A stretch of DNA of 64,000 nt from Trypanosoma brucei (GCA_000002445.1 CM000208.1:480001-544000), one strand, 5' to 3'. Positions 30,289-50,350 are shown, numbered from the stretch's first letter. Made by a program: numbers and translations. The notes: generated by a model from the sequence alone, not told the origin.

Positions 30289-32535
30289 ATGTCGAACGGG
30301 TATAAGCGCGAGCGCTGGGATGAAGAAAGCGGTGACCACTACCACCAACATGCCGTCCGCTACAGTGATCTACCGCCCAATGTAAAACTCCAGAGGCGAC
30401 GGCAGGAGCGGCAGGAGAAGAAGGAGAAGGAGCGCACTCTCGCCTACTTCACATCGGTTCATCGTGCTCTTGAGGAGCAGTCAGCGGAGACTTTAGTTGC
30501 CTTCGTCGATGGGTTTTTCGTTGAGCTAATCAAACTTCTGCGTGCCGACACCTCGCTTCACCTACTTCGAAACGGTACCGTCTGCCGTACCATTGAAGCT
30601 GCTCTGGCCAGCTCACAATTGCTACACTGCAAGTCATTATTATACATACTTCTCGGCCACGTGTACGACCTTGCAGCCTCCCCAACGGCAAGTCGCACGC
30701 TAGAAGCAATAATTGCCAGCATTGTGCGAGGTGTTAGTGTATTTCGCAGAACCGACAGCAGCGCATTCTCAGCGGAGATGGAGGAGGGAGGTGCTTCCAG
30801 TAACGGTGTGCCCAGTGCGTCAACCCTCATAACGTGTGTTGTCGAAGAACTCGCGGAGCGAGCAGGAGAGGTGCTGCTACACGACGCTGCCGCGCGTGCC
30901 GTAAGGTCAATCATATTATTTCTTGGTGGTTTTTGGAACTCTACAGGCACTGCATCGTCCCTGCCACACGGTGTAAAATTCTACGCACAACTTGATACTC
31001 TTGGTACCGCCCTTATGTGTGTCGTTGAACCGACGTTTGGTGTTAGCTGCGGCGATGGAGTGGCGAATATTTGGCTTCAGGTGGCGAAAACTCCAACTGC
31101 AAGTTTCGTCGTTCAGAGTCTTCTTCGTGTGTGTGAACGAGAGACGAAACTGGATGCAAGTGTGCGACAACGCTTGGAGGTCATTCACAACGACGGTTCA
31201 CAGTTGTTGAGACAGCTTCTTATGGATCCGCTGGGTTGCCATCTTTTCCAAGCTTACTTAAGAGTCCCTGTACCAGCATCGGTGCTGAAGGATTACGATT
31301 CGTTCTCAAGCTACCAGTGCTCCGGAACTGCACCGACTTCGTCGGGAAGTGGAAAGCGTTTTATTAAAATGTTACGCGACGTTGCCGCCGAAGAACCCCC
31401 AAACCCCGATGAGTTGGCGCACGAAAAGACATGTTGGGACAAAGCCCTTGCGATTGTCGTCGAGGCCCTCGATGATTTGCTGGACCCAGCTGGCAGCTCC
31501 GTCGGTCATGCAGTTTTCGCCCTACAGGATCTTGTGCTCTTCGCCCCCACTGCCGTGCATTTGGAACGCGTGTGGGAGCAGCTCCTGGAGCGCATCGGTT
31601 TACGGACGCTCTTAGCGTCGCCGAAGTTAGTGCAGGTCCTGATCGTGTTCACTCGTAAGTGTGCCTTTTCGAACCCCTTGCCGACTGTGGTGGAGAGTGA
31701 AGATCGTTCAGCGGAAGCGGCGCCGTTGGAAGGCGGGTTTGTCGGAGATATGGTTCCTAAGGATGTGGAGCAGTCGATATACAATGACCTGTCGCAGGGT
31801 GTGAGGTACTTTCCTACCTCTACGGAATTTCAAAAAAAAGTCTTAACCGCATTGCTTCGGGTGGCACGTGAACTCTGCCCCAAAGGGGCTGCGCAATTCC
31901 TGTTGGTGGATGGTGGATTGCAGGACAAAGGTTTTGAATTGGCACGGTACATAATGCATTTTGTGCCGGCGGCTTCAGCTGTGTTCCTTCACGCAATCGA
32001 GCGTTTGCGTCGCTCAGATGTTGAGACATTGTTATACCACCCGAAGGGTAGTTTGGTATTTCAGCAGTTCCTTCGTGCTGGAGCCGCGCACCATCCACAA
32101 GGAAAGAAAGGAGGTGAGCAACAGCAAGAACAACAACGGGTGGAGACGATGATCCCATTGAGTTTCATGCGACGTATCTCCCCACTTCTGCCACGGTTGG
32201 TGGTTAATACGTACGCCGCGTACGTGATAGAGGTGCTATACGATGTTGGGAGCTTTGAGGTGAAAGAAGAGCTCGTCAAGGCACTTTTGCCAATATACAA
32301 TGAGATGAAACGTAGCCATGAGGAGAAACAACGAGAGGTTAGAGAAGCAGCGAGCCGAAATGATCCATCCGCTAACCCAAACAACTTTCACATGTCAGAA
32401 TTTATCACACGGAAAGTAATGACAAAGTGTCTTGTAGAGATGTACTCCCATAGGCCTGATGATTGGGCGAAGCTCGCGAGACGGCAGTGCCAGGTTCAGC
32501 GGCTTTTGCAACGTATGTCTTCTGTAGCATTTTGA
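30289..32535 (+). CDS. Puf/Nop9-like helical-repeat RNA-binding protein (putative)
   Basis: 748 aa. Recurrent Puf-like repeat cores: ASFVVQSLLRV, LGCHLFQAYLRV, GSLVFQQFLRA, AAYVIEVLYDV, VGHAVFALQDLV. Lys/Glu-rich ends. The assignment is from motif pattern only. Confidence 0.45.
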   Translation: MSNGYKRERWDEESGDHYHQHAVRYSDLPPNVKLQRRRQERQEKKEKERTLAYFTSVHRALEEQSAETLVAFVDGFFVELIKLLRADTSLHLLRNGTVCRTIEAALASSQLLHCKSLLYILLGHVYDLAASPTASRTLEAIIASIVRGVSVFRRTDSSAFSAEMEEGGASSNGVPSASTLITCVVEELAERAGEVLLHDAAARAVRSIILFLGGFWNSTGTASSLPHGVKFYAQLDTLGTALMCVVEPTFGVSCGDGVANIWLQVAKTPTASFVVQSLLRVCERETKLDASVRQRLEVIHNDGSQLLRQLLMDPLGCHLFQAYLRVPVPASVLKDYDSFSSYQCSGTAPTSSGSGKRFIKMLRDVAAEEPPNPDELAHEKTCWDKALAIVVEALDDLLDPAGSSVGHAVFALQDLVLFAPTAVHLERVWEQLLERIGLRTLLASPKLVQVLIVFTRKCAFSNPLPTVVESEDRSAEAAPLEGGFVGDMVPKDVEQSIYNDLSQGVRYFPTSTEFQKKVLTALLRVARELCPKGAAQFLLVDGGLQDKGFELARYIMHFVPAASAVFLHAIERLRRSDVETLLYHPKGSLVFQQFLRAGAAHHPQGKKGGEQQQEQQRVETMIPLSFMRRISPLLPRLVVNTYAAYVIEVLYDVGSFEVKEELVKALLPIYNEMKRSHEEKQREVREAASRNDPSANPNNFHMSEFITRKVMTKCLVEMYSHRPDDWAKLARRQCQVQRLLQRMSSVAF

Positions 32536-32910
32536 GAGAGGAGTGCGAGTGCGCGTGTTCGTCCGTGTGAGACAATCTAATGAGTTACTAACTTACCTCT
32601 TCGTCATTCACTAGTAAGGATTTGGTTTGGTATTCTAACTTTTTGTGATTCGTATAATCGCTAACGTTTTTGTTTACCTTTTTTTTCTAAAAGACTTTCG
32701 ATGGCTTGGTGCCGCGTCGCACAAACTGGGAATATGTTAAGACGAGAAAGTTTTCATCTGTGCCCTTCGCTTTCCTTTCTCTTATTATCTTTCACTTGCC
32801 CAAAATGAACACAGGACGGAGTGTAATTAGATTGAGTCCGGCGAGTAGTGGTCAAATACGGTTGTTGGGCTGTGTGTTGGTTGTTGGTGTCGCAGGTAAG
32901 TAATTTGGAG

Positions 32911-35900
32911 ATGGCCCAACCGGTGGATCTATGTGAACTGTACAGTTCTTACTGCAAGGAGGAAGGTTGTAAACCAAATACTGCGGTTTTGCAATACATT
33001 ATCGACTGTGGGCGCAGGTATCCACTAGAAAAGTTGATACTGGGTAACAATTACTTGGGACCACGAGGCTTACGACCGATTGTTCGCCTGGTGGACTATT
33101 GTCCAACAATGATGCATCTCAACATCGATGAGAACGGGGCTGATAACGACACCGTATCACTCCTCTGTGATGTGCTAATGACACACAAAGGCATGCAGAC
33201 AATCAGCCTACGCGGTAATCCAATCACGGCCACCGGTGGGAAGAAGTTGCTCGCACTTGCGGAGAAGAACCCTAAAATCACTCATATTGATCTTGATAAC
33301 ACGGACGTTTTTCAGGCACTCTTGTTGAAGATCTACGCCGCAACGAAAGCGAACCGTGATCGGATTGGGAGGGGGGCGGTACACCTTATTCCAACCAGTA
33401 TGGACGAGAAGGAATTAATGGCTATTGTGAGCAGCGCAAATACGAAGATGACACACACGTTTACAGAGAAGCCGGTGATTAGACAACTCCCCAGCGTCAA
33501 AAAGGGTGAGCCAACTCCTGTGGAGAGTTCCGTGTCACCCCGTGTAGTGTCACCGGTGGAGCGCTCAACAACTTTCCCAAAACCTGGTAGGGCCTGGGGT
33601 GGTGGTCAACCTTCCTGTGAAACCAAGTCTCCCCTTGCACGCAGGAAGGGGAGGGCTCGGCCACCTATTCCTCCCATTACGTCTCGTTTGCCGGAGTCTC
33701 AACGACTAGAGTTGCAGAAGGAATACCGTCAAAGGGCAATGATCCTACGCGAAGTGAATACGAGCCAAGCGAGCAAAGTAGCCAATCGCGTTCGTGAAGA
33801 GTTGATGCTATTAGAGCGTAACTTTAGGAGTGAGCCCTCCACCCAACTCGGTTGGAACGTGGAAGCTGCGGGAACGGAGGCCGGAGAAGGTAAGGGGGAC
33901 CACAGTTTCGACCAAGATTTGGAGGCTATTGAAGGATATGTGGACACCAACCAGGAGGAGACGGAGCATGGTGCTCAGCCGCAAATGCAGCATGTAGAGG
34001 AAGGCTCCGCGGATAATAGTCGACCTGAGGGGCTTATAAATCGCTCATCAAATGGTGCTTTCGGCCCTCCACCGAACTTCCGTGAGCCACAGCAGCAAGT
34101 GTTGTTGCGAAGGGATGAAACATCTCCCGAAGTACCATTCGGCAATGCCGGAGGGGTGACTTCGCTGAAGTCCATAAATTTGAGCGCAATTTCCCCATCT
34201 TCTAATAGCCCTGATTTCACTGGGAAAATTGTGTTGCAAAGTGGTACTCCGAACACGAATACGGAGAAGGAGAGCGAAGACAACGTACACACATTTATGG
34301 AGAGTCCTGCTTGGATGACGCTCGGAAGCGGCGAAAAATTGCAGTACCTCTTTAACAGTGGCTGTCGTGCGTACGTAAGCCAGAAGTTTGACACTTCGTA
34401 CATGGCATGGAAGGAGGCAATGTCCATTGCCACTTCAGTGAAGGACAGACAGTGGATGGCAGTGCTTTCTAACAATTTGCAGCGACTGAGCTATGAGATG
34501 CTAGTACGTGAAGGTACCGAGTTCCTAGATGAATTTAAGCTAGAAGATGCGGACGTAGCCTTTCAGCGTGCTCTTGAAGTTGCCCGTAGGGCAAATAACG
34601 CAAAATGGGAGTCAGATATGCATAAAGCACGTCGGGATGTACAGGTGGCTATTTTCCACAAAACTGATGAGGCTGCGTTGCGTATGTTCGAAAAAGCACA
34701 AACCACGGAGCCGCGAAAAGTGACGAGTGACGATTATTTTGTCGTTGCGGGCTCCGATGTACTTATACAGCACACCGAGGCGTACGTGAACGAGTGGGCT
34801 TGCATGTTGCTGGTAAAGGAGGCTGTCGAGTTGTGGGCGGCGGCCATCCGCGTCACTGAGCGAATTGGGGGAACTGCTTCTCATACACTTCAAGTTTCTG
34901 TGAAGGAGTCGCTGACTACAGTTTCGTACTTTCTCGCGCAGAGGTGTTTCGATGTGGAGGACACACAGTCGTTGAGTTGGATGTCCACTTCCCGCTACAA
35001 CTACCATGAGTGTATTATGCTCATCAAACTGTGGACGGACATGACGTCCAGCGCCGATTTTCGCGAAAATCATAAACTCTTCGCAGCCATTGCCGCGGCT
35101 CAGATAGGGAATTTGTACCTAGCTACGAACCAACTGAAAGAGGCGGAGGCGCAGTTCTCAGCGCTTACATCTCTCGGTGAAGAACTTCGTGATTCAATCC
35201 TAATCGCTGCCGGGCACACTTTCCGGGCACTTCTCAACTGGCAGTGTGCGCGGTATCCAGCAGCGGAGGAGCACTTTCGTACGGCCGTAGCGCGTTGGGG
35301 TGCACTACGCGATGTGGTGAGACGGGAACGACTGGAGCAGAACAGCTTCGTTGGAAATACCACTGGTGTCAACTCAACATCAAATTCCAGCAGTAACGTA
35401 GTCGATAGTCTGACCAAGGTGACCACCGGCCGTTATCACGTGGATGGAGTTTCAGATGCTGTGTTTTCCCGCTGTAATGAGTTGTCAAGGCTACTGTTGC
35501 TGCTGCCACGTGGATACGTGTCGATGATGGAGTGTGTCAGCTACAACTACCTTGTTTCGAGTCTCGCATGCAAATACCGATACAGCGAAGCACTGGAGGT
35601 GTTGGAGTGTGGCTTGGTTTGTAAGTATCGTGACATGCTCTTTGACAAGCTCGAGATGAACTTTAGCACTCGGCCTACTTTTGCACAAATCACGGCCACA
35701 CCTTCACTGGTTCACTCACCCCTGGTTTATTATTTGACGACAAGGCGTTATGAATGGAGCTCTACAAAGTGCTCCTACGACGTGGAGGAGAGTTTGCTAA
35801 CGTGGATTGTTCCACAGGTGGGTGACATGCGTTTTATTGAGATCCCTTTGATGAAGGAAATGAAAGTGTTGTCCGTTGACAGTCTTGTGCAGAGGGTGCG

Positions 35901-37128
35901 TAAGTCACTTTTGCTTGCCCCCCTTGATAGGCTGGGAGCAAACAATGCTAGGAGTGGCGGAACCAGCGGTGACTCCTGTGGGGGCGAAAAGGCGGTGGAT
36001 GCACCTGAGATAATTACGGAGCTTCCTAATAAAACATGGGTGGAACCACTCAAGACGCTTTACAACATTTTCATCGAGCCCATTGCAGCCTATATCCGCT
36101 CGTCGGACCCGCGGCTCCTGGCAAAGAACGGTGTCGTAACGATAATTCCCACGGATGGCCTGTGGCTCGTCCCATTCAATGCCCTCATGTCACGGAACGG
36201 GAATTTCGTTATTGAGGACTTTGCTTTTCAGTTGGGGTTCAGCGCTACACAGTGTCGTCTCGCTGCGCTGAGTGCGAAGCGAGTGCAGCAGCGGTGTTTG
36301 TTTCAGAACTTGGTGCTCGTACAAAAACAGGCGGACGCTACCGAGCAGTTGATGTCGCACTTGCTTTTTCCTCTTGATGCTCACCGCTCAGAGAGTGAAG
36401 GTGCTGTAGTCATGCAGACGCTTGCTCAGAACAAGCGGCACGTCCGACACCAGTGTAATTCCTACGTGACAAGCGAGATAACGAGCAGCGAGGTGCTCCT
36501 GCACGACATCGAGAAACTGAAGGAACACTTGCCGCGCAGTCGCACAGTTCATATCGCCGCCTCCACCACAAGCGGCTTTCGGAATGAGGATGCAGGTGGA
36601 GGTGCCATTTGTATAGCGGGGACAAAGGGCGACTTACAACTGTTGCGTTCCTCTGATATTGCGCGCATGGAATTATTCGCTGAGCACGTGATTCTTAGCA
36701 ACGCTAATATGTCACCCTCTGGCATCGTTGGCACGCACGACGATGTACTTTGTCTCACCCGCGGCTTCCTCGCTAGCGGGGTGCCATGCGTTATTACATC
36801 GCAGTGGTGCACACCCGACATGGTGCCAGCGATGCTCTTCTCACGCTTTTACCAACACCAGTCCGCGCCCAATAAACGCACTCGAAGCTCGTTGCTGTCC
36901 CGTGATTCCATTGGACTGCTCCCTGCATCGGGTACTCAACAGAATGCATTGTCTAGGAAGGAGGAGGGGAGTGATCGGTGTAACGACAACTTAAACTGGC
37001 ACAAGGCACTTTTCCTTGCGCAAGCCATCCGGGGGTTATTGGAGGACGACACATTCCGTTACTCACCGCGTTCGTGGGCGGGGTATTATTGCATTGGGTA
37101 CGGGTTGATGCCGCCGGGGGAGGCCTGA
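32911..37128 (+). CDS. Large LRR - TPR-like - CHAT (caspase-like) domain protein, with the catalytic Cys apparently substituted
   Basis: The ORF track gives 32848..37128. ATG 32911 (MAQPVDLCELYSSYCKEEGCKPN...) is the likely start because it aligns with the N-terminus of the 8132 gene product. N-terminal RNI-type LRRs. A long Ser/Pro/Glu-rich linker. Helical TPR-like repeats around aa 520-800. The C-terminal CHAT-like block reads TVHIAASTTSGF...AEHVILSNANMS...GFLASGVPCVITSQWCTPD. The expected LSAC Cys reads LSNAN. Confidence 0.6.
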   Translation: MAQPVDLCELYSSYCKEEGCKPNTAVLQYIIDCGRRYPLEKLILGNNYLGPRGLRPIVRLVDYCPTMMHLNIDENGADNDTVSLLCDVLMTHKGMQTISLRGNPITATGGKKLLALAEKNPKITHIDLDNTDVFQALLLKIYAATKANRDRIGRGAVHLIPTSMDEKELMAIVSSANTKMTHTFTEKPVIRQLPSVKKGEPTPVESSVSPRVVSPVERSTTFPKPGRAWGGGQPSCETKSPLARRKGRARPPIPPITSRLPESQRLELQKEYRQRAMILREVNTSQASKVANRVREELMLLERNFRSEPSTQLGWNVEAAGTEAGEGKGDHSFDQDLEAIEGYVDTNQEETEHGAQPQMQHVEEGSADNSRPEGLINRSSNGAFGPPPNFREPQQQVLLRRDETSPEVPFGNAGGVTSLKSINLSAISPSSNSPDFTGKIVLQSGTPNTNTEKESEDNVHTFMESPAWMTLGSGEKLQYLFNSGCRAYVSQKFDTSYMAWKEAMSIATSVKDRQWMAVLSNNLQRLSYEMLVREGTEFLDEFKLEDADVAFQRALEVARRANNAKWESDMHKARRDVQVAIFHKTDEAALRMFEKAQTTEPRKVTSDDYFVVAGSDVLIQHTEAYVNEWACMLLVKEAVELWAAAIRVTERIGGTASHTLQVSVKESLTTVSYFLAQRCFDVEDTQSLSWMSTSRYNYHECIMLIKLWTDMTSSADFRENHKLFAAIAAAQIGNLYLATNQLKEAEAQFSALTSLGEELRDSILIAAGHTFRALLNWQCARYPAAEEHFRTAVARWGALRDVVRRERLEQNSFVGNTTGVNSTSNSSSNVVDSLTKVTTGRYHVDGVSDAVFSRCNELSRLLLLLPRGYVSMMECVSYNYLVSSLACKYRYSEALEVLECGLVCKYRDMLFDKLEMNFSTRPTFAQITATPSLVHSPLVYYLTTRRYEWSSTKCSYDVEESLLTWIVPQVGDMRFIEIPLMKEMKVLSVDSLVQRVRKSLLLAPLDRLGANNARSGGTSGDSCGGEKAVDAPEIITELPNKTWVEPLKTLYNIFIEPIAAYIRSSDPRLLAKNGVVTIIPTDGLWLVPFNALMSRNGNFVIEDFAFQLGFSATQCRLAALSAKRVQQRCLFQNLVLVQKQADATEQLMSHLLFPLDAHRSESEGAVVMQTLAQNKRHVRHQCNSYVTSEITSSEVLLHDIEKLKEHLPRSRTVHIAASTTSGFRNEDAGGGAICIAGTKGDLQLLRSSDIARMELFAEHVILSNANMSPSGIVGTHDDVLCLTRGFLASGVPCVITSQWCTPDMVPAMLFSRFYQHQSAPNKRTRSSLLSRDSIGLLPASGTQQNALSRKEEGSDRCNDNLNWHKALFLAQAIRGLLEDDTFRYSPRSWAGYYCIGYGLMPPGEA

Positions 37129-38356: not shown

Positions 38357-40477
38357 ATGACCGATAATAAGGTTCTCTACGTTGGTTGCGTTGTTGTCAC
38401 CCTGAAAGAGGTTCGCGTCTGCGGGAAGCAGCTGGAGTGTGAAGCGACCCGCAGTGGTGGCGCCCAGTTCTGCGTGCGTACTGCCGTGGCCGTGGCAGAG
38501 ACTGCAAACCACAGCATACATGAGCGTTTCTGTGAGCGCGTCAACTCCAGCATATACTCCTTTAAAAACAGCACGATGATGGAACAAATGGTGGTACCGG
38601 TGATGCTGTTGCGTTCCCCATCAACCATCGCCACGATGAACGGGAGCAAACACAATGACAAGGTCAATACCAACGGTAGTGCCGATCGCGTCAGGAATGG
38701 TAACAGCGATGTGACTGATCTGGGAGCGAACGGGGAGGATATGGATGTAGGGCTAGATCTGTTTTTGGATATCAGTTTCTTGCATGGAGAATCTATGGTA
38801 TGGAGTCTGCGACGCCGAGTTGAGGTGGAGTCATTGGACGCAATCGCCTCGCAGAATTGTGGAGTTGCAGTTGCGCGCGTGAGTACCGATGTCCTGCAAA
38901 GCAACGGTGTGTTGCCGACTTCAGAGGCTGTACGGGGCGGTTCCGCCGCGTGTGATGCCAGCGATGGACGTGAGGATGATGAATGGTCAGGGTTAGAGTT
39001 GCACGTCATTGTGCGGTCCATGGACATGTCCGAGCCGATTCGGCTGATGGTTGCCGCAGAGCGGGAGGCGAGCGCGTTTCTGGACTTACCTCAGAGAGAA
39101 CCCCAAACAGTATTCTTGTTACCGCTGCGGCATGCCATGCCATACAACGCGCTTCCGCTTGAGGTACTGTACCAGTTTTATTGCTGTTTCTATGAGTATT
39201 TCTTTAACAAGCCTGTTAAAGTCTTTGGGCACGTGGTGAATATGCTGCGTACCCGGCAACCTGGTGGAATGGGTGACAACAAAACACGCGGTGGTGCTGT
39301 TACAGAAGGACGCTGGAGCGAGTTACGCTCCGCTGACCTACGTCCCTTACTTCTCGGTGAAGATGCATTAGCGCCGGTACTGGCCACACTGTTTCACTGC
39401 CCAGGGTTACGTGAGTTACTGTTGGACCAAAACAGTTTGAGTGATATAACGTGCTACCGTATTAGATCCCTGTTTTACCGCCACCGCCACTTAGAGACGC
39501 TGTCCATCGCAAGGAATAATATACATGAGGGTGGCGGCGAGCAGCTTGTGCGCCTCATACGTCGGAACAAGCGTCTTATTGATGTGAAAGCCTCTGGCAA
39601 CCATTTCACGCACTCTATGTCGTCGCGGATCCAGCGTGTGGCGAGTCTCAACGAGGAGTACATAAGGGGGGACCCTTACAATGTCTTTTCATCTGCGTAT
39701 TCGTATGTTGTGTCTCCCACATCGTTCCCGGCTAGCATTATAAAACAAGCACTAGCTGTTTGGGCGATGCTCTCAGCGGCGCCGGTAAGCACGGTAATTG
39801 TAGACTGCGTCCCTAACAGCACTTTTGGGATAGACTTAATGGGTTCTCCCAACAATATGAAAAGCAACGGTTCCCTCCACGGCTCTGCACTTGACAACGG
39901 TGTTGTGGAAGCTACTGATAAGGCGTTGGAGTCCAGCCAAGCTACTTCAATTCCCCATTGTGCGCTCTCGCCTCTCCTGAATGAAGTGATGCGGACTGTT
40001 GCACTACGAATGTCGTCCATTTTACACGACCCGTGGGCACTCCTTGTGTTCTCTGATATTGAAAGTCATTGGGAACGGTGCACCATAACACTGAGGGAAC
40101 AGAAGGAAAAATGCAGCAAACAGGACGCCCAGGCCGCCGCAGACGGGCGAGAAGATGGGCCTGCAAGCATAAGACATGGTGAGGCAGCGTTGTGCGAGGT
40201 GGAGGACTTGTACGCCATATCATTTCTTCACCTTGTGGTAGTGACAATGCGAGCCGTTGGAAGGGCAATGGACTGGGAAGACGCGTCTTCGGTGCTTCGC
40301 GATATTGGAAGGAAGCAGATGGCTATAGGCATTTTAGAAGAAAACTACCGTGATGCTATCCAGATCTTTGTCCAGTCACTTGCAGTGGTGTGTGGGAAAG
40401 ACGAAGCTGACGTTGAGCACTCCGCAGCATTCCTTCAGTGCCTCGCCTTAGGCGTCAGGACTGCAGTAGCAGCGTAA
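38357..40477 (+). CDS. Hypothetical protein with an RNI-like LRR segment
   Basis: 706 aa. The LRR stretch reads LRELLLDQNSLSDITCYRIRSLFYRHRHLETLSIARNNIHEGGGEQLVRLIRRNKRLIDVKASGNHF. The rest has no recognisable domain. Confidence 0.5.
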   Translation: MTDNKVLYVGCVVVTLKEVRVCGKQLECEATRSGGAQFCVRTAVAVAETANHSIHERFCERVNSSIYSFKNSTMMEQMVVPVMLLRSPSTIATMNGSKHNDKVNTNGSADRVRNGNSDVTDLGANGEDMDVGLDLFLDISFLHGESMVWSLRRRVEVESLDAIASQNCGVAVARVSTDVLQSNGVLPTSEAVRGGSAACDASDGREDDEWSGLELHVIVRSMDMSEPIRLMVAAEREASAFLDLPQREPQTVFLLPLRHAMPYNALPLEVLYQFYCCFYEYFFNKPVKVFGHVVNMLRTRQPGGMGDNKTRGGAVTEGRWSELRSADLRPLLLGEDALAPVLATLFHCPGLRELLLDQNSLSDITCYRIRSLFYRHRHLETLSIARNNIHEGGGEQLVRLIRRNKRLIDVKASGNHFTHSMSSRIQRVASLNEEYIRGDPYNVFSSAYSYVVSPTSFPASIIKQALAVWAMLSAAPVSTVIVDCVPNSTFGIDLMGSPNNMKSNGSLHGSALDNGVVEATDKALESSQATSIPHCALSPLLNEVMRTVALRMSSILHDPWALLVFSDIESHWERCTITLREQKEKCSKQDAQAAADGREDGPASIRHGEAALCEVEDLYAISFLHLVVVTMRAVGRAMDWEDASSVLRDIGRKQMAIGILEENYRDAIQIFVQSLAVVCGKDEADVEHSAAFLQCLALGVRTAVAA

Positions 40478-40866: not shown

Positions 40867-43458
40867 ATGGTGGACAAGGAGAATCAGGTGATTAGGTTGC
40901 GACCTTATGAATATATTCATGTAATGGACAGGAACACTTGTGAGGTGATGCTTGTGGAGGGCCCGCGCTCCTTCACGATGTTGGACCACCACATAAGTCT
41001 CCACGACAAGGTGCAGAACCACGTTGTTGTTCCACCGGGCCACTACTGCGAAGTAGAGAACCCCGTGGTGAAGCCGACTGCAAGCTCATCTGTGGGGACC
41101 CTGTGTAATGAGATGGGCCACCGTGAAGTGCGTTTGAGCCAGGACCCGTTCCCGCTGCACCCTGGCGAGAAACTCGTGACGGAACCTCAGCCGATGCGTA
41201 TTCTGGCTGCTAACGAAGCGATTGCGGTGCGTGCGTTGAAGGAATTCACATACTCCGTCCCCGCTCTGGGCGGGAGTAACAACGGTGAGAAGGGTGACAC
41301 CACTGGAGTTGCAGTACGCCGTCGTGCCGTAGGAGAGGTTTGGTTGGTGCGTGGTCCCTGCGAGTACGTTCCGCGTGTGGAGGAGGTGGTGGAGGGCAAT
41401 GTGACGCCCATTTTTCTATCTGCGGGTCAGTCGCTCGTCTTGCGTGCGAACTGCAATTTCACGGATATTAACGGCGTAAAACGGTCACGGGGTGATGTGT
41501 GGGCCGTTACCACTGCGGGCATGCACTTCCCCGATCCGTCGGCGAGCGTCGTGCGTGTGCATGAAGGCGTAATCCTGTCTGCAACGGAAGCGGTGCGTGT
41601 GCGTGCACTCCGCTCGTTCTTCGACCGTCTGGCGGCTGTTGATCGTGTAGCTGGGGAGCGGTGGCTTGTGACACATGATGTCGTGCCGCTGTTTATCCCC
41701 ACAGTGGATGAGGAGGTGGAAGAGAAGATTTCTCTTACAATCGTCGGAGAGCGGCAGTACTGCGAGATACTTAACGTGGTGAAGGGTGGTGTGTGTCACT
41801 ATGGTGTGTGCGAAGTACGCCATGGTCCATGTTCGTTCTTCCTGCAACCTGGAGAAGTCCTGGTAGGTGGAACTGTGCGGGAGGCGCACATTCTCTCCTC
41901 TGACGAGGCGCTTCTCGTCGTCGCCGTCCGTGCCTTTGTGGACGAGGACGGGGTGGAGCGTGAACCTGCATCGCGGTGGTTGGTTCATGGGCCACGGAAG
42001 TACATCCCACCGCAAGGCGTGACCGTGGTGGAGCGCCGGAAGCGGATGGTGTTGAGTGGCAGTGAGGGTGTGTATGTACGTGATATTTGCACTGGCAACG
42101 TGCGGGCGGTGCATGGTGAGGCTGTGTTGCTGGGGCCTGAAGAGGAGTTATGGGAAAAGCCCATCGACCCGCTGGTGCATAAGCTGCTCACTGCCCGCAG
42201 ACACTCCATGTACGCTTCTCGTGTGTGCACAGAAACCTCGGTGGATGTTGGTTCTGAGGGCCATCCGAGGACACACAAGATTGTTATGTTCAAGGTGCCG
42301 CATAATGCACTGGTGCAGCTGTATGACCCGACGACGAACAAGAGCCGCGTGGAGGCCGGGCCACTGACTGTATCACTTGGTCCGAACGAGGAGATTAGTG
42401 TGGTTGTGCTCTCCGGTGGGCAACCGAAGCGGCGTGGTCACATTCACTCACTGTTTCTCTTTTTGGGTCCTGACTTTATGGCTGACAAGATTGTTGTCGA
42501 AACACTTGAGCACGCGCGGTTGCAACTTGAAATTGCGTACAATTGGGAGTTCGACACAACGGATGTGGAGCATATCAAGCGTATCGCCTTCAGCGTGCCG
42601 GACTTCGTTGGCATGGCGTGCAAGACACTGGCGAACCGAATCCGTGCTGCGATTGCCAGTGAACCGTTTGATAACTTCCATCGAAATTCATCCTCCCTCA
42701 TACGGCGGGCCATATTCCACTCACACTCCGGAACGACGGAGCTGCGTGGCGACAGTCTTTACTTTCCTGTGAACGGCCTTGTGATAACAAATGTGGACGT
42801 ACGCAGCGTTGAACCGGTTGAGGTGAAGATGCAAAACGCCCTCACGAAAAGTGTACAGCTCGCTGTGGAGATTATTACCAAGTCCCAGGAAAACGAGGCT
42901 TCCCACCAGGCGATGTTAATGGAGCAGGAGGAGAAGGGTGCGCTAGAGCTGCAACTGATGAAGGACCGCGTGTCGGCAGAGGAGGAGCGAGTGAAACTGT
43001 TGCGTGTTGTTGCCGAAAACACTGCAATCGAACTGTGCGGCGCGAGCAAGGCGCAGGCGTTGGCTGAGAGCGAGGCGCGTTGCGTGGAGTCGCAGGGCGA
43101 ATTGGATGTAACAGGGATAAGATGTGAAGCCCAGTCGCTGATTGCCGCTGCGCAGCTTGCCGGTCTCCGGGAGCGGGTGGAAAGCAAACTCTGCCACCGG
43201 CGGGCTATGGATGAACTTGCTATCGCGAAAGCCAAGGCCCTCTCGGACATCGATGCGACGAAGTATGAGAAGATATTTGAGGCTCTGGGTAAGGGAACAT
43301 TTGAAGCTATTGCGCGGGCTGGACCGGAACTAAAGGCGAAATTGCTGCAGGCGCTTGGTCTCAAGGGATTCCTTGTAACTGATGGTTCAACACCGATTAA
43401 TTTGCTCGGAATTGCAGACTGCGTGCTGCACAAAAATGGGAACGACGCGTTGCCATGA
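40867..43458 (+). CDS. MVP: Major vault protein (MVP)
   Basis: 863 aa. Collinear matches to the MVP family: N-terminal repeat LRPYEYIHVMD...PPGHYCEVENPV, repeated EWLVRGP/RWLVHGP vault-repeat motifs, the shoulder region LQLEIAYNWEFD and FSVPDFVGMACKTLANRIRAAIAS, a coiled-coil cap helix, and the C-terminal LKAKLLQALGLKGFLVTDGSTPINLLG. Confidence 0.85.
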   Translation: MVDKENQVIRLRPYEYIHVMDRNTCEVMLVEGPRSFTMLDHHISLHDKVQNHVVVPPGHYCEVENPVVKPTASSSVGTLCNEMGHREVRLSQDPFPLHPGEKLVTEPQPMRILAANEAIAVRALKEFTYSVPALGGSNNGEKGDTTGVAVRRRAVGEVWLVRGPCEYVPRVEEVVEGNVTPIFLSAGQSLVLRANCNFTDINGVKRSRGDVWAVTTAGMHFPDPSASVVRVHEGVILSATEAVRVRALRSFFDRLAAVDRVAGERWLVTHDVVPLFIPTVDEEVEEKISLTIVGERQYCEILNVVKGGVCHYGVCEVRHGPCSFFLQPGEVLVGGTVREAHILSSDEALLVVAVRAFVDEDGVEREPASRWLVHGPRKYIPPQGVTVVERRKRMVLSGSEGVYVRDICTGNVRAVHGEAVLLGPEEELWEKPIDPLVHKLLTARRHSMYASRVCTETSVDVGSEGHPRTHKIVMFKVPHNALVQLYDPTTNKSRVEAGPLTVSLGPNEEISVVVLSGGQPKRRGHIHSLFLFLGPDFMADKIVVETLEHARLQLEIAYNWEFDTTDVEHIKRIAFSVPDFVGMACKTLANRIRAAIASEPFDNFHRNSSSLIRRAIFHSHSGTTELRGDSLYFPVNGLVITNVDVRSVEPVEVKMQNALTKSVQLAVEIITKSQENEASHQAMLMEQEEKGALELQLMKDRVSAEEERVKLLRVVAENTAIELCGASKAQALAESEARCVESQGELDVTGIRCEAQSLIAAAQLAGLRERVESKLCHRRAMDELAIAKAKALSDIDATKYEKIFEALGKGTFEAIARAGPELKAKLLQALGLKGFLVTDGSTPINLLGIADCVLHKNGNDALP

Positions 43459-43923
43459 GCGTAGGGGCATATATGTGGGTACACCTCCGCATGTGTGAAA
43501 ATTTCTTCAGTTACATGTTTCTTGATAGCTATTTATTTTCCTTCCGTTTTCGACGCATTTGTTTCTTCACTGATATGTGAGCGGTGCTAGTGACAGCCCC
43601 TCCCTTCCTCCCTCCCCTGCAGTCCCTTACAGGGTGATAGTGATCCCTGTAGGAGGAAATGCTGGTGGCGCACGCGCCCCACTTGCCTACATGTATATGA
43701 TTAACGTTACATAAATCTCCCTCTTGTTGCCGTGTATGGTGCAATACATCTTGGGAAGGAAGTGAAACCATTGCTGCTGCTTAACCGCACTGCGGTGTAG
43801 TGATATGTCTGTGCTACATGAAGTTGTGATTGGAACAGACGATGCTTGCCGTGACGGCGCGTCGGGCAACGATGTTAGTGGGTTGTTACAGTCGACATTG
43901 GTGCCTACCATATGTGAGAGTGG

Positions 43924-43988
43924 TGACAACAAATAGTTTTTGTTTTGTTTTATTTTTTTACAAATTCTTTTTTTTTGTTTTTTGTAGG
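43924..43988 (+). promoter_or_regulatory. Polypyrimidine tract + AG, putative trans-splice acceptor region for the actin-like gene
   Basis: ttttgttttgttttattttttacaaattcttttttttttgttttttgtag lies immediately 5' of ATG 43989. This is the architecture kinetoplastids use for SL trans-splicing. Confidence 0.55.
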
Positions 43989-45518
43989 ATGACTGCTGGA
44001 TATCCGGTTCTTGTAGTTGATAATGGTGGCTATATGCTAAAGGCGCTCTACATTACTAGTGACGGTAAGTCCTCTTTTTTGCGTGGTAAAATTGCCGTAA
44101 TACCTAATTGTGTTGGAGCTGCTTCATATGTCGGTCGTGGAATTGTCGGTGAGCAGCTTTTCAAGTTACCGCACTTTCATGGCTTTATGGTTCGTCGTCC
44201 TGTTGATCGTGGTTTTATTGTGGATGCGGGACTTCAAAGCTACATTTGGGAGTACCTTCTTCAACACTTGGCTGTAGCCGATGAAAGTGAAGTGGAGCTT
44301 GTTATGACTGTCCCGTTTGGCGCTCCAAAGCAGGTGGGTGAACTTCTTCACTATTTGGTTGCACAGCGTTTCAGGTTTCGGTCAGTAACATTTGTGAGTT
44401 CGTCATTTCTAACGTTAGTGTCTTCTGTTTCACGCGATTGGCTGTATGGAAAGGCACCGGGTAATGGTAAAAGCAACAAAAAGGTGCGTGAAAAGTCAAA
44501 TTTCGGTTCTGACGGCGTGGGCTCTGAGAGTGTGACCGGGTGTGGGATGGTCGTTGACTTTGGTTTCTCGTCGACAACAGTTGTTCCGTACGTTAATTTC
44601 ATTCCATTGCAGGATTCTATTGTGCGAATTGACGTTGGTGGGAAGCTCTTGTCAAACAGGCTAAAGGAGCTCATTTCATTTACTCAGGTTAACGTGACGG
44701 AAGATGGTTGGTTAGTAAATCACATTATGGAGCAGGCCTGTTATGTGGCTCTGGATCCACTCGTGTCCTTGCGAAAGGCTGAATACGCAAAGCGGTTTGA
44801 TAAGGGGAACGGTGCTTTTGCAGGGTTGCGGTACTACTTGCCTACTGTTCCACCCCTTATGCCCCTTGGTTGTCGTGAGGAGCAGCTGACTCAAATCATT
44901 GGCAAAGACGTTGTGTTGCAGGAGAAAAATTCTTTACAGCATATTGTTTTCCGTCACGAGGCCTTTCTTATCCCGGAGCTTATCTTTAATCCTGTGGATG
45001 TGGGCATTTGCCAGATGGGTGTCGTCGAAGCCATAGTTCATGGGACCTGCTGCAGAGGTTCGCTACAGAACATGCGCACGTTGCACGGTGCAATGATGCG
45101 ACGCATCATTGCGTTTGGTGGTATTACCAAGTTTAAAAATCTTCCTGAGCGACTTTCGACAGAGCTCCGAAAGCATCTGAAGGAGGAGGGAGCATCGAGA
45201 GTGAGTGTCCCACCTGTAAAAGGTTCTGCCCCTCTTCAGGAATTCGTTCAATGGTCGCGCATTGGAAGGGTACGTATCGATCTTCAGTATAATGGCGTTG
45301 GTTATACACCGAGTGACTGTGAACTTCAACCCCTTTTCGGTGCTCTTGCACTTATCACGTGCCCCGTGCTGGAACCTCAGTTGAAATTGGTGCAAAGCCG
45401 GAGTCGTGTGGAGCTCCTGCCGGGAAGCACAGCAAAGGGAAGCCAAAACAGACAACAGGCATCCGCGGGCCCAAGGACTCTTAGTGCGGTTCTCTCGGCG
45501 CTTCAAAATTTACTGTAA
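43989..45518 (+). CDS. Actin-like / actin-related protein
   Basis: The ORF track starts at 43830, but the preceding codons translate a poly-T tract. ATG 43989 directly follows a long polypyrimidine tract plus AG (43924-43987). The N-terminus VLVVDNGGYMLKA matches the actin phosphate-1 loop (DNGSG-type). The C-terminal IIAFGGITKFKNLPERLSTELRKH resembles the actin GGT..PG..R motif. Confidence 0.6.
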   Translation: MTAGYPVLVVDNGGYMLKALYITSDGKSSFLRGKIAVIPNCVGAASYVGRGIVGEQLFKLPHFHGFMVRRPVDRGFIVDAGLQSYIWEYLLQHLAVADESEVELVMTVPFGAPKQVGELLHYLVAQRFRFRSVTFVSSSFLTLVSSVSRDWLYGKAPGNGKSNKKVREKSNFGSDGVGSESVTGCGMVVDFGFSSTTVVPYVNFIPLQDSIVRIDVGGKLLSNRLKELISFTQVNVTEDGWLVNHIMEQACYVALDPLVSLRKAEYAKRFDKGNGAFAGLRYYLPTVPPLMPLGCREEQLTQIIGKDVVLQEKNSLQHIVFRHEAFLIPELIFNPVDVGICQMGVVEAIVHGTCCRGSLQNMRTLHGAMMRRIIAFGGITKFKNLPERLSTELRKHLKEEGASRVSVPPVKGSAPLQEFVQWSRIGRVRIDLQYNGVGYTPSDCELQPLFGALALITCPVLEPQLKLVQSRSRVELLPGSTAKGSQNRQQASAGPRTLSAVLSALQNLL

Positions 45519-45888: not shown

Positions 45889-47304
45889 ATGTCTAGACGC
45901 CTAAACAATATCCTCGAACACATCTCGATCCAGGGAAATGATGGTGAGACTGTGCGTGCCGTTAAGCGTGATGTTGCAATGGCAGCGCTGACCAACCAAT
46001 TCACAATGAGTGTCGAGTCTATGCGACAGATCATGACATACCTCCTGTACGAGATGGTGGAGGGTCTTGAGGGTCGTGAAAGCACCGTCCGCATGTTACC
46101 ATCTTATGTATACAAGGCGGACCCTAAGCGTGCTACTGGCGTCTTCTACGCACTTGACCTCGGTGGTACCAACTTCCGTGTGCTGCGCGTTGCATGCAAG
46201 GAGGGTGCCGTGGTGGATTCCTCTACTTCTGCATTCAAGATTCCCAAATATGCCCTTGAGGGTAACGCCACCGATCTGTTTGGCTTCATTGCATCCAATG
46301 TGAAGAAAACCATGGAAACTCGTGCACCTGAGGACCTCAATCGCACAGTTCCTCTTGGGTTTACCTTCAGTTTCCCCGTGGAGCAGACGAAGGTTAACCG
46401 TGGTGTGCTTATCCGGTGGACGAAGGGCTTCAGCACGAAAGGCGTTCAAGGAAATGATGTGATTGCCCTTCTTCAGGCTGCTTTTGGGCGAGTGAGCTTG
46501 AAGGTGAATGTTGTGGCGTTGTGCAACGACACTGTTGGAACATTAATTTCGCATTACTTTAAGGACCCTGAGGTACAGGTTGGTGTGATTATCGGCACTG
46601 GTTCCAATGCGTGCTACTTTGAGACGGCGTCTGCTGTGACGAAGGACCCTGCCGTTGCTGCTCGTGGGTCAGCACTTACTCCCATCAATATGGAAAGCGG
46701 CAACTTTGACTCCAAGTACCGGTTTGTCCTCCCTACGACGAAGTTCGACTTGGATATTGACGATGCGTCGTTGAACAAAGGTCAACAGGCGCTGGAGAAG
46801 ATGATATCCGGCATGTACCTCGGCGAAATCGCCCGCCGCGTTATTGTGCACCTGTCGTCTATTAACTGCCTTCCTGCGGCACTGCAGACTGCTTTGGGCA
46901 ACCGGGGGTCGTTTGAGTCCCGATTTGCCGGGATGATCAGTGCTGACCGTATGCCCGGACTTCAGTTCACTCGCAGCACGATCCAGAAGGTGTGTGGTGT
47001 TGACGTGCAGTCAATTGAAGACCTTCGCATCATTCGCGATGTGTGCCGCCTTGTCCGTGGGAGGGCTGCGCAACTCTCTGCTTCCTTCTGCTGCGCTCCA
47101 CTGGTTAAGACTCAAACACAGGGCCGTGCAACTATTGCAATTGACGGCTCCGTGTTTGAGAAGATTCCGTCATTCCGCCGCGTCTTGCAGGACAACATCA
47201 ACCGTATCCTTGGCCCTGAGTGCGATGTCAGGGCCGTTCTCGCAAAGGATGGCAGTGGAATTGGTGCTGCATTTATTTCCGCAATGGTGGTGAACGACAA
47301 GTAA
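45889..47304 (+). CDS. HK: Hexokinase, tandem copy 1
   Basis: 471 aa. Hexokinase motifs ALDLGGTNFRVLRV, LGFTFSFPVEQT and IGTGSNACYFE. The N-terminal MSRRLNNILEHI fits a PTS2 (R-L-x5-H-I) glycosomal signal. The C-terminal tail is ...AKDGSGIGAAFISAMVVNDK. Confidence 0.95.
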   Translation: MSRRLNNILEHISIQGNDGETVRAVKRDVAMAALTNQFTMSVESMRQIMTYLLYEMVEGLEGRESTVRMLPSYVYKADPKRATGVFYALDLGGTNFRVLRVACKEGAVVDSSTSAFKIPKYALEGNATDLFGFIASNVKKTMETRAPEDLNRTVPLGFTFSFPVEQTKVNRGVLIRWTKGFSTKGVQGNDVIALLQAAFGRVSLKVNVVALCNDTVGTLISHYFKDPEVQVGVIIGTGSNACYFETASAVTKDPAVAARGSALTPINMESGNFDSKYRFVLPTTKFDLDIDDASLNKGQQALEKMISGMYLGEIARRVIVHLSSINCLPAALQTALGNRGSFESRFAGMISADRMPGLQFTRSTIQKVCGVDVQSIEDLRIIRDVCRLVRGRAAQLSASFCCAPLVKTQTQGRATIAIDGSVFEKIPSFRRVLQDNINRILGPECDVRAVLAKDGSGIGAAFISAMVVNDK

Positions 47305-48600: not shown

Positions 48601-50350
48601 CACCCACACATTGTTTATGCTGCTGCTTTGCGCTGAACACTTTAAGGCAACGTATGAGGTCTTCATTAGGTGTGACGGGGATCTGTTGTCGTTACTGTCC
48701 TTGTGTGATGTTGTTGCTTCTCTTAATTCCTTTCTTTCCCCCCTTTCTGCTTGCACCGGTGCAATACTGCCGTGTGGATCGATACGCCATAAGAAAGCAA
48801 TACAAACACAAATAAGTTATATAAAAAACTCTATTTATTACTAAAGCCAAAACCCCGAGACACATATCATTTCCAGTATAAAGGAAAAAGATATCAGCGT
48901 AAGTTTATCACCTCGATATTGGAACGTCCGAGTAATGTCTAGACGCCTAAACAATATCCTCGAACACATCTCGATCCAGGGAAATGATGGTGAGACTGTG
49001 CGTGCCGTTAAGCGTGATGTTGCAATGGCAGCGCTGACCAACCAATTCACAATGAGTGTGGAGTCTATGCGACAGATCATGACATACCTCCTGTACGAGA
49101 TGGTGGAGGGTCTTGAGGGTCGTGAAAGCACCGTCCGCATGTTACCATCTTATGTATACAAGGCGGACCCTAAGCGTGCTACTGGCGTCTTCTACGCACT
49201 TGACCTCGGTGGTACCAACTTCCGTGTGCTGCGCGTTGCATGCAAGGAGGGTGCCGTGGTGGATTCCTCTACTTCTGCATTCAAGATTCCCAAATATGCC
49301 CTTGAGGGTAACGCCACCGATCTGTTTGACTTCATTGCATCCAATGTGAAGAAAACCATGGAAACTCGTGCACCTGAGGACCTCAATCGCACAGTTCCTC
49401 TTGGGTTTACCTTCAGTTTCCCCGTGGAGCAGACGAAGGTTAACCGTGGTGTGCTTATCCGGTGGACGAAGGGCTTCAGCACGAAAGGCGTTCAAGGAAA
49501 TGATGTGATTGCCCTTCTTCAGGCTGCTTTTGGGCGAGTGAGCTTGAAGGTGAATGTTGTGGCGTTGTGCAACGACACTGTTGCCACGATGATTTCGCAT
49601 TACTTTAAGGACCCTGAGGTACAGGTTGGTGTGATTATCGGCACTGGTTCCAATGCGTGCTACTTTGAGACGGCGTCTGCTGTGACGAAGGACCCTGCCG
49701 TTGCTGCTCGTGGGTCAGCACTTACTCCCATCAGTATGGAAAGCGGCAACTTTGACTCCAAGTACCGGTTTGTCCTCCCTACGACGAAGTTCGACTTGGA
49801 TATTGACGATGCGTCGTTGAACAAAGGTCAACAGGCGCTGGAGAAGATGATATCCGGCATGTACCTCGGCGAAATCGCCCGCCGCGTTATTGTGCACCTG
49901 TCGTCTATTAACTGCCTTCCTGCGGCACTGCAGACTGCTTTGGGCAACCGGGGGTCGTTTGAGTCCCGATTTGCCGGGATGATCAGTGCTGACCGTATGC
50001 CCGGACTTCAGTTCACTCGCAGCACGATCCAGAAGGTGTGTGGTGTTGACGTGCAGTCAATTGAAGACCTTCGCATCATTCGCGATGTGTGCCGCCTTGT
50101 CCGTGGGAGGGCTGCGCAACTCTCTGCTTCCTTCTGCTGCGCTCCACTGGTTAAGACTCAAACACAGGGCCGTGCAACTATTGCAATTGACGGCTCCGTG
50201 TTTGAGAAGATTCCGTCATTCCGCCGCGTCTTGCAGGACAACATCAACCGTATCCTTGGCCCTGAGTGCGATGTCAGGGCCGTTCTCGCAAAGGGTGGCA
50301 GTGGTGTCGGTGCGGCACTTATCTCCGCTATCGTTGCTGACGGGAAGTGA
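48601..50350 (+). repeat. Tandem duplication unit, copy 2 (hexokinase 5' flank + CDS)
   Basis: See copy 1. The spacer between the copies (47305-48600) is unique sequence. Confidence 0.9.
48935..50350 (+). CDS. HK: Hexokinase, tandem copy 2
   Basis: 471 aa, nearly identical to copy 1. Internal differences: G131D, TVGTL to TVATM, INM to ISM. The C-terminal tail differs: ...AKGGSGVGAALISAIVADGK. Same PTS2-like N-terminus. Confidence 0.95.
   Translation: MSRRLNNILEHISIQGNDGETVRAVKRDVAMAALTNQFTMSVESMRQIMTYLLYEMVEGLEGRESTVRMLPSYVYKADPKRATGVFYALDLGGTNFRVLRVACKEGAVVDSSTSAFKIPKYALEGNATDLFDFIASNVKKTMETRAPEDLNRTVPLGFTFSFPVEQTKVNRGVLIRWTKGFSTKGVQGNDVIALLQAAFGRVSLKVNVVALCNDTVATMISHYFKDPEVQVGVIIGTGSNACYFETASAVTKDPAVAARGSALTPISMESGNFDSKYRFVLPTTKFDLDIDDASLNKGQQALEKMISGMYLGEIARRVIVHLSSINCLPAALQTALGNRGSFESRFAGMISADRMPGLQFTRSTIQKVCGVDVQSIEDLRIIRDVCRLVRGRAAQLSASFCCAPLVKTQTQGRATIAIDGSVFEKIPSFRRVLQDNINRILGPECDVRAVLAKGGSGVGAALISAIVADGK

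Follow-up and report, generated by a model that had tools for sequence, protein, structure and literature searches.

In the window analysed here, which is the whole 64,000-nucleotide stretch of Trypanosoma brucei chromosome 10 given above (GCA_000002445.1 CM000208.1:480001-544000), positions 32911..37128 of the plus strand carry the coding sequence of Tb927.10.1970, a gene annotated as 'CHAT domain containing protein, putative'. Its product joins an N-terminal module of leucine-rich repeats (LRR) of the ribonuclease inhibitor (RNI) type, a set of helices resembling tetratricopeptide repeats (TPR) and a C-terminal CHAT domain. As judged from aligned sequences, Tb927.10.1970 has lost both residues of the catalytic dyad of this domain, so that it is most likely non-catalytic. 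We consider it likely that Tb927.10.1970 is a dead TPR-CHAT protein (separase/Csx29-like, clan CD) serving as a flagellar scaffold or adaptor, most likely in or on the paraflagellar rod (PFR).

Results

The gene and its product

The open reading frame (ORF) starts with an ATG at 32911 and ends with a TGA stop at 37126-37128, encoding 1405 amino acids (aa). The product is 100% identical to the T. brucei brucei TREU927 protein XP_822452.1 / EAN77624.1 / UniProt Q38C46, encoded on chromosome 10. Its computed molecular mass and isoelectric point (pI) are 156,615 Da and 6.36, and the PMC10361982 supplement lists Tb927.10.1970 under the same product name with 156,617 Da and pI 6.371. An upstream GTG at 32848 leads to a 1426-aa version in the mechanical ORF list. 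As that ORF begins at the GTG, the residue numbers of an earlier reading of this DNA (referred to as the sequence-only reading) are 21 above those of the annotated protein, which are used throughout. The sequence-only reading had proposed an LRR-TPR-CHAT architecture with a degenerate caspase-like site, and this proposal was borne out by the Pfam match, by the predicted structure with its Foldseek matches, and by the LRR profile, all described below.

The CHAT domain and its predicted fold

The Pfam CHAT family (PF12770) matched aa 1045-1396 (352 aa; 36043..37098, plus strand) with E=9.4e-58 and 196.4 bits (gathering cut-off 24), and the match covers profile positions 2-288 of 289. By fold, the separase/Csx29-like CHAT module is larger, extending roughly over aa 938-1400 (35722..37110, plus strand) in the predicted model and its Foldseek comparisons. 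The domain is therefore much longer than the C-terminal 130 aa to which the sequence-only reading had assigned it, and the strings quoted in that reading (TVHIAAST, AEHVILSNANMS and GFLASGVPCVITSQWCTPD) are all present in the ORF. PF12770 is carried by all orthologues. When aa 470-1405 were used as the query in a HMMER search, 1823 relatives were recovered at E<=1e-3, 31 of them at E<=1e-30.

Two AlphaFold models were used. Model 1, built from a 6-sequence alignment, was unusable in the CHAT region (predicted local distance difference test score, pLDDT, <50). Model 2, covering aa 866-1405 with an 86-sequence alignment, reached a mean pLDDT of 88.2 and a predicted template modelling score of 0.89. 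The CHAT module shows in this prediction a caspase/hemoglobinase (separase-like) fold with two lobes. Thus, both the Pfam CHAT model and the caspase-fold structures, with which the sequence-only reading had proposed to compare the C-terminus, gave matches, the latter as a separase/caspase fold in Foldseek. A phmmer search of the C-terminus against PDB sequences returned no match, so the similarity of the CHAT domain to solved structures is visible at the fold level only. Searches of NCBIfam and of a phage collection also returned no match, as expected for a eukaryotic gene. In a mixed profile run against the PDB, TPR repeats from the bacterial members dominated the result, which said nothing independent about the trypanosome protein.

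Loss of the catalytic dyad

To locate the catalytic positions, the T. brucei sequence was compared column by column with 29 orthologues and 56 canonical CHAT domains. The canonical motifs are (I/L)HLATHG and LVVLSACDTG(R)G, in which the second His, the Gly following it and the Cys are each present in 56/56 domains. This second His aligns with H862 of DdvA, and the Cys aligns with C907 of DdvA and C658 of Csx29. H862 and C907 form the catalytic dyad of DdvA (PMC11506125), and the activity of Csx29 is abolished by H615A/C658A (PMC10028731). In Tb927.10.1970, the corresponding motifs read H1214-I-A-A-S1218-T1219 and L1262-S-N-A1265-N1266-M. In the alignment with the canonical domains, Ser1218-Thr1219 (codons TCC ACC, 36562..36567, plus strand) stands at the position of the catalytic His-Gly, and Ala1265 (codon GCT, 36703..36705, plus strand) at that of the Cys nucleophile, while Asn1266 falls in the canonical Asp/Asn column after the Cys. 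In model 2, strand 1210-1219 has residue 1218 at its C-terminal end, and residue 1265 comes just past strand 1259-1264; this modelled placement is the topology expected for the dyad of a caspase fold.

The orthologues tell the same story. The His column holds Pro (9), Ala (6), Ser (6), Glu (4) and other residues including Asp, with His in 0/29; the Cys column holds Thr (14), Ala (5), Ser (3), Cys (3) and Val (2), Cys thus being present in 3/29. The alignment of kinetoplastid orthologues suggested earlier accordingly finds the loss of the nucleophile conserved. The sequence-only reading was correct that the nucleophile had been lost, but the Cys-to-Asn change that it described results from a one-column shift, the true replacement being Ala1265. 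Its statement that the His region follows the consensus did not hold up, as His1214, which is retained, corresponds to the first His of the motif, a non-catalytic one, and the catalytic His-Gly has become Ser1218-Thr1219. That the first His of HLATHG is not catalytic follows from DdvA, which has Asp in its place (IDLATHG) while keeping the catalytic H862. For the same reason, H1214 was rejected as a possible catalytic His; it is, moreover, equally invariant in active domains that possess the true His-Gly. As the replacement of the dyad is common to orthologues across Euglenozoa, it is old. The proposal of a non-catalytic, scaffold-type protein gains support from the loss of both dyad residues, as far as the alignments can tell.

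Retained residues and alternative cysteines

Over aa 866-1405, 61 positions reach at least 80% conservation within the family, and most of them coincide with positions that are near-invariant in active CHAT domains too: P1088, L1092, E1163, H1214, R1284, G1290, W1299, P1302, D1303, F1313, Y1314, W1389 and G1396. Several of these belong to the loop W1299-C-T-P-D1303 (36805..36819, plus strand; SQWCTPD, canonically SLWxVPD), which adjoins the former active site. Within the family, W is found in 30/30 sequences, T and P in 28/30 each, D in 25/30 and C1300 in 24/30; in the equivalent loop of the 56 canonical domains, W is present in 55, P in 46 and D in all 56. The equivalent loop is a substrate-groove loop in caspases, and by analogy a ligand-binding role may be inferred for the WCTPD loop. 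Because nearly all other core and groove residues of the CHAT domain are conserved, the loss is confined to the chemistry. At the sequence level, retention of the fold and of the active-site loop without the dyad is typical of a pseudoenzyme still able to bind something.

These retained features must also be weighed for another explanation, namely that Tb927.10.1970 is still a protease acting through a non-canonical nucleophile (C1300 in the WCTPD loop, or C1293) together with some other general base. C1300, and C1293 in about 18/30 family members, stand where canonical CHAT domains have Ala or Ser, and the substrate-groove residues have been kept, both of which would suit such an enzyme. However, neither cysteine has a conserved His partner: H1214 sits mid-strand and is non-catalytic in active domains, and H1259 is Leu in most orthologues. 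Furthermore, the oxyanion/His-Gly motif is wholly gone, C1300 is not universal in the family, and a clan CD enzyme whose nucleophile has been relocated is not known to us. We therefore regard a surviving protease activity of this kind as very improbable. A third cysteine, C1281 in CLTRG, was rejected as a substitute nucleophile, as this position is Gly in 16/29 orthologues; the suggestion of the sequence-only reading that a nearby Cys (in CLTRG or PCVITSQWC) might take over is thus unlikely to hold at any of the three positions.

The N-terminal LRR module, the linker and the TPR-like region

Residues 1-160 (32911..33390, plus strand) form an RNI-type LRR module made up of 3-4 repeats, each about 28 aa long, and a capping helix, as recognized with an orthologue profile. 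The profile of 25 orthologue N-termini matched porcine ribonuclease inhibitor (1dfj) with E=1.3e-22; it also matched human ribonuclease inhibitor (E=6e-17), the LRRs of NLR proteins and RanGAP, and, with E-values down to 7.8e-27, RNI-like axonemal LRR proteins. On the single sequence of Tb927.10.1970, Pfam LRR_6 stayed below threshold (E=0.064). These profile matches confirm the assignment of the N-terminal repeats to the RNI type of LRR, and the module is kept in all full-length orthologues, the diplonemid included.

The linker that follows (aa about 161-470) is of low complexity and poorly conserved except for one motif at aa about 250-305 (RLPESQRLELQKEYRQRAMILREVNTSQASKVANRVREELMLLE; 33658..33825, plus strand), the sole conserved linker block in the orthologue alignment. 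Its consensus is RLPExQRLELQRRYRERAMLLREVNSSxASKVADRAREELMLLE, and a phmmer search with the linker matched orthologues over this stretch only. From its sequence, the motif is probably helical or coiled-coil, and it may be a separate binding site.

TPR-like alpha-helical repeats occupy aa 471-934 (34321..35712, plus strand), broken by a low-complexity insertion at aa about 815-858. Paired helices were predicted at aa 473-813 with pLDDT 80-90 (model 1) and further helices at aa 867-934 with pLDDT >95 (model 2), the whole repeat region ranging over pLDDT 80-98. In Foldseek, the helical region matched the TPR domains of LGN/Pins, consensus-TPR and OGT (E=1e-6 to 1e-3), and phmmer aligned aa 866-1000 with the TPR-to-CHAT junction of cyanobacterial TPR-CHAT proteins. 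The TPR-like helices that the sequence-only reading had placed before the CHAT domain are thus found by both structure prediction and fold comparison. As the Pfam TPR models are individually sub-threshold on the Tb927.10.1970 sequence, the repeats are best described as 'TPR-like, divergent'.

Distribution of the family

The LRR module, the helical region and the CHAT domain are all present in about 30 full-length orthologue representatives. Among trypanosomatids, those with an organism name come from T. congolense, T. vivax, T. melophagium, T. rangeli, Strigomonas culicis and Leptomonas seymouri; others come from the prokinetoplastids Apiculatamorpha spiralis and Papus ankaliazontas, the diplonemid Diplonema papillatum and the euglenid Ploeotia vitrea. 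Within the best 150 hits: the orthologues that carry an organism name are all euglenozoan; the LRR is found in the euglenozoan orthologue group only, in agreement with the earlier remark that such a fusion is unusual for CHAT proteins; and next in closeness come TPR-CHAT proteins of cyanobacteria such as Calothrix and Trichocoleus, in which the dyad is intact. The distribution throughout Euglenozoa indicates that the LRR fusion and the inactivation predate the split of the main euglenozoan lineages. The PFR is a euglenozoan structure, and the distribution of the family, as seen in the best 150 hits, fits that of PFR-bearing organisms.

Localization and the neighbour Tb927.10.1980

The supplement of PMC10361982 lists for Tb927.10.1970 the gene ontology (GO) component 'cytoplasm; paraflagellar rod', and the terms given there include curated experimental localizations. 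By TAGM-MAP classification of hyperLOPIT data, the protein was assigned to 'flagellum 1' in bloodstream forms, with a probability of about 1, and to 'microtubule structures 2' in procyclic forms (PMC10361982). The next gene downstream, Tb927.10.1980 (38357-40477, plus strand; 'hypothetical protein, conserved', 706 aa), carries the terms 'cilium; cytoplasm; paraflagellar rod' and has both hyperLOPIT classes identical to those of Tb927.10.1970 (PMC10361982). A search of Tb927.10.1980 against Pfam gave no match. Its aa 333-436 are an RNI-type LRR similar to aa 49-152 of Tb927.10.1970 (BLASTP E=1e-9, 22% identity over 104 aa), and Tb927.10.1980 may be a partner of Tb927.10.1970 or may share a targeting module with it.

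These data also bear on whether Tb927.10.1970 is a fixed component of the PFR lattice, or instead works in soluble form in the cytoplasm and flagellum, as an adaptor or assembly chaperone escorting subunits of the PFR or axoneme while the flagellum is being built. The latter would account for the GO term cytoplasm beside PFR and for the procyclic class, a cytoskeleton-interacting set that changes between life stages (PMC10361982). TPR and LRR are typical adaptor modules, and the protein is absent from the T. brucei axoneme structures solved so far, its C-terminus having no sequence match in the PDB. On the other hand, 'flagellum 1', in which the bloodstream protein was placed with near certainty, comprises core cytoskeletal flagellar components, and the distribution of the family, within the best 150 hits, parallels that of the PFR itself. 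We consider a purely soluble role unlikely and favour the scaffold or adaptor in or on the PFR.

A literature search found no paper that characterizes Tb927.10.1970 or assays its peptidase activity. This agrees with the sequence-only reading, to which no characterized TPR-CHAT protein of trypanosomatids was known, even though a CHAT annotation and a PFR term do exist in databases.

Context of the locus

Upstream of Tb927.10.1970 lies Tb927.10.1960 (30289-32535, plus strand), whose 748-aa product has a PUF repeat domain of the NOP9-like kind (E=5e-16) and is nuclear in hyperLOPIT (PMC10361982). Downstream of Tb927.10.1980 follow the gene for MVP2 (major vault protein; 40867-43458, plus strand), identified as Tb927.10.1990 (PMC12547018), an actin-like gene (43830-45518, plus strand) and two tandem 471-aa hexokinase genes (45889-47304 and 48935-50350, plus strand; Pfam Hexokinase_1/2, E about 1e-62), so that both MVP2 and the actin-like gene lie 5' of the hexokinase tandem. 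The computed masses and pI values of the two neighbours agree equally well with the entries for Tb927.10.1980 and Tb927.10.1990 in the supplement of PMC10361982. The tandem hexokinase pair corresponds to the known HK1/HK2 of T. brucei.

All gene-like ORFs of at least 200 aa in the window are on the plus strand. The GC skew is positive nearly across the entire window, and the cumulative skew climbs steadily to about 2.7. Both observations are consistent with a single long polycistronic transcription unit, as expected in trypanosomatids. Contamination or a recent bacterial transfer was ruled out as the origin of the gene, as the window is a plus-strand polycistronic segment of T. brucei chromosome 10 with MVP2 and the hexokinase tandem.

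Discussion

Our results point to Tb927.10.1970 as a TPR-CHAT protein in which the protease has been disabled and the groove residues have been kept. If it is the PFR scaffold or adaptor that we consider likely, the TPR solenoid and the vestige of the substrate groove would jointly clamp an extended peptide from a partner and leave it uncut, in the way that securin is held by separase and Csx30 by Csx29. Docking of this assembly onto another flagellar component would then fall to the LRR cap. A candidate for this docking partner is the neighbour Tb927.10.1980, which bears an LRR itself and shares the localization of Tb927.10.1970. A more specific scenario, which we put forward only tentatively, is that: a separase-like protease became inactive before Euglenozoa radiated, and was fused to an RNI-type LRR; it was recruited as a PFR building block or docking adaptor, with a partner peptide held permanently in the former groove; and it may form a sub-complex with Tb927.10.1980.

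Three observations weigh against the proposal of a dead flagellar scaffold or adaptor. First, the family-specific C1300 lies beside the old active site and could in principle be a nucleophile. Second, three diplonemid-type homologues (Diplonema papillatum KAJ9468644 and relatives) keep the Cys, in LPACNHS / MQCCNHS, so the order and completeness of dyad loss vary across the family. These Cys-keeping orthologues have Glu at the position of the catalytic His (HVSAEVL), and, going by the alignment, the His may have been lost before the Cys in the LRR-TPR-CHAT family. Third, the assignment to the PFR comes from high-throughput tagging and fractionation, the procyclic class covers the cytoskeleton in general, and cytoplasm appears in the GO component as well.

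Comparison with known systems helps to define what is particular to this protein. The bacterial TPR-CHAT proteases, such as Csx29 from type III-E CRISPR 'Craspase' and Calothrix WP_323341863, keep the His-Cys dyad (56/56), whereas the trypanosome protein has Ser and Ala in its place; Csx29 is a proven protease with H615/C658 as its dyad (PMC10028731). The trypanosome protein differs further in being eukaryotic and flagellar, and in the addition of the N-terminal LRR and a 300-aa linker. Separase is catalytically active (human C2029; PDB 9hm7 carries C2029S), lacks an LRR, has a nuclear/cell-cycle role and shares only about 11% identity with Tb927.10.1970. FAP46/CFAP46 of the ciliary central apparatus is a fold match with about 10-12% identity, which implies no orthology; it belongs to a projection of the C1 microtubule rather than to the PFR, is far larger and has no N-terminal LRR. 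The protease-like domain of c-FLIP and the caspase-like domain of Raptor are also caspase-fold pseudoenzymes, but they belong to other families, occur in different domain contexts and are structurally much less similar to Tb927.10.1970 than is the CHAT/separase branch.

The presence of the inactive c-FLIP protease-like domain among the fold matches raises the question of whether the dead CHAT domain could be a regulatory decoy, in the manner of c-FLIP and caspase-8, that pairs with an active protease of the CHAT or metacaspase type or competes for its substrates. At least one further CHAT-domain protein, Tb927.9.15290 (PMC6299225), is encoded by T. brucei and might be such a protease, and CHAT modules can oligomerize, as seen in the DdvA dimer and the SAVED-CHAT filament (PMC11506125). 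However, the closest structural matches of Tb927.10.1970, separase and Csx29, act as monomers (PMC11506125), and nothing connects Tb927.10.1970 with Tb927.9.15290. A decoy function thus seems improbable to us, and a structural role in the flagellum remains the reading that we prefer.

The CHAT annotation and the PFR localization term of Tb927.10.1970 are already public. The following appear to be undescribed in the literature searched: the full loss of the dyad; its conservation throughout Euglenozoa; and the constancy of the LRR-TPR-pseudoCHAT architecture, together with its fit to the PFR as a lineage-specific structure. In practical terms, the annotation of the gene as a possible peptidase should bear a 'non-peptidase homologue' flag.

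The characterized members of the CHAT family are active proteases in bacterial defence and signalling, and in separase; Tb927.10.1970 adds a eukaryotic structural case to this family. Taken with the fold match to FAP46/CFAP46, this case suggests that flagellar architecture has drawn on separase-like folds on more than one occasion. The PFR has many components and is needed for the motility and viability of trypanosomes. A dead protease conserved throughout Euglenozoa and equipped with three interaction modules is a candidate organizer or adaptor of this structure.

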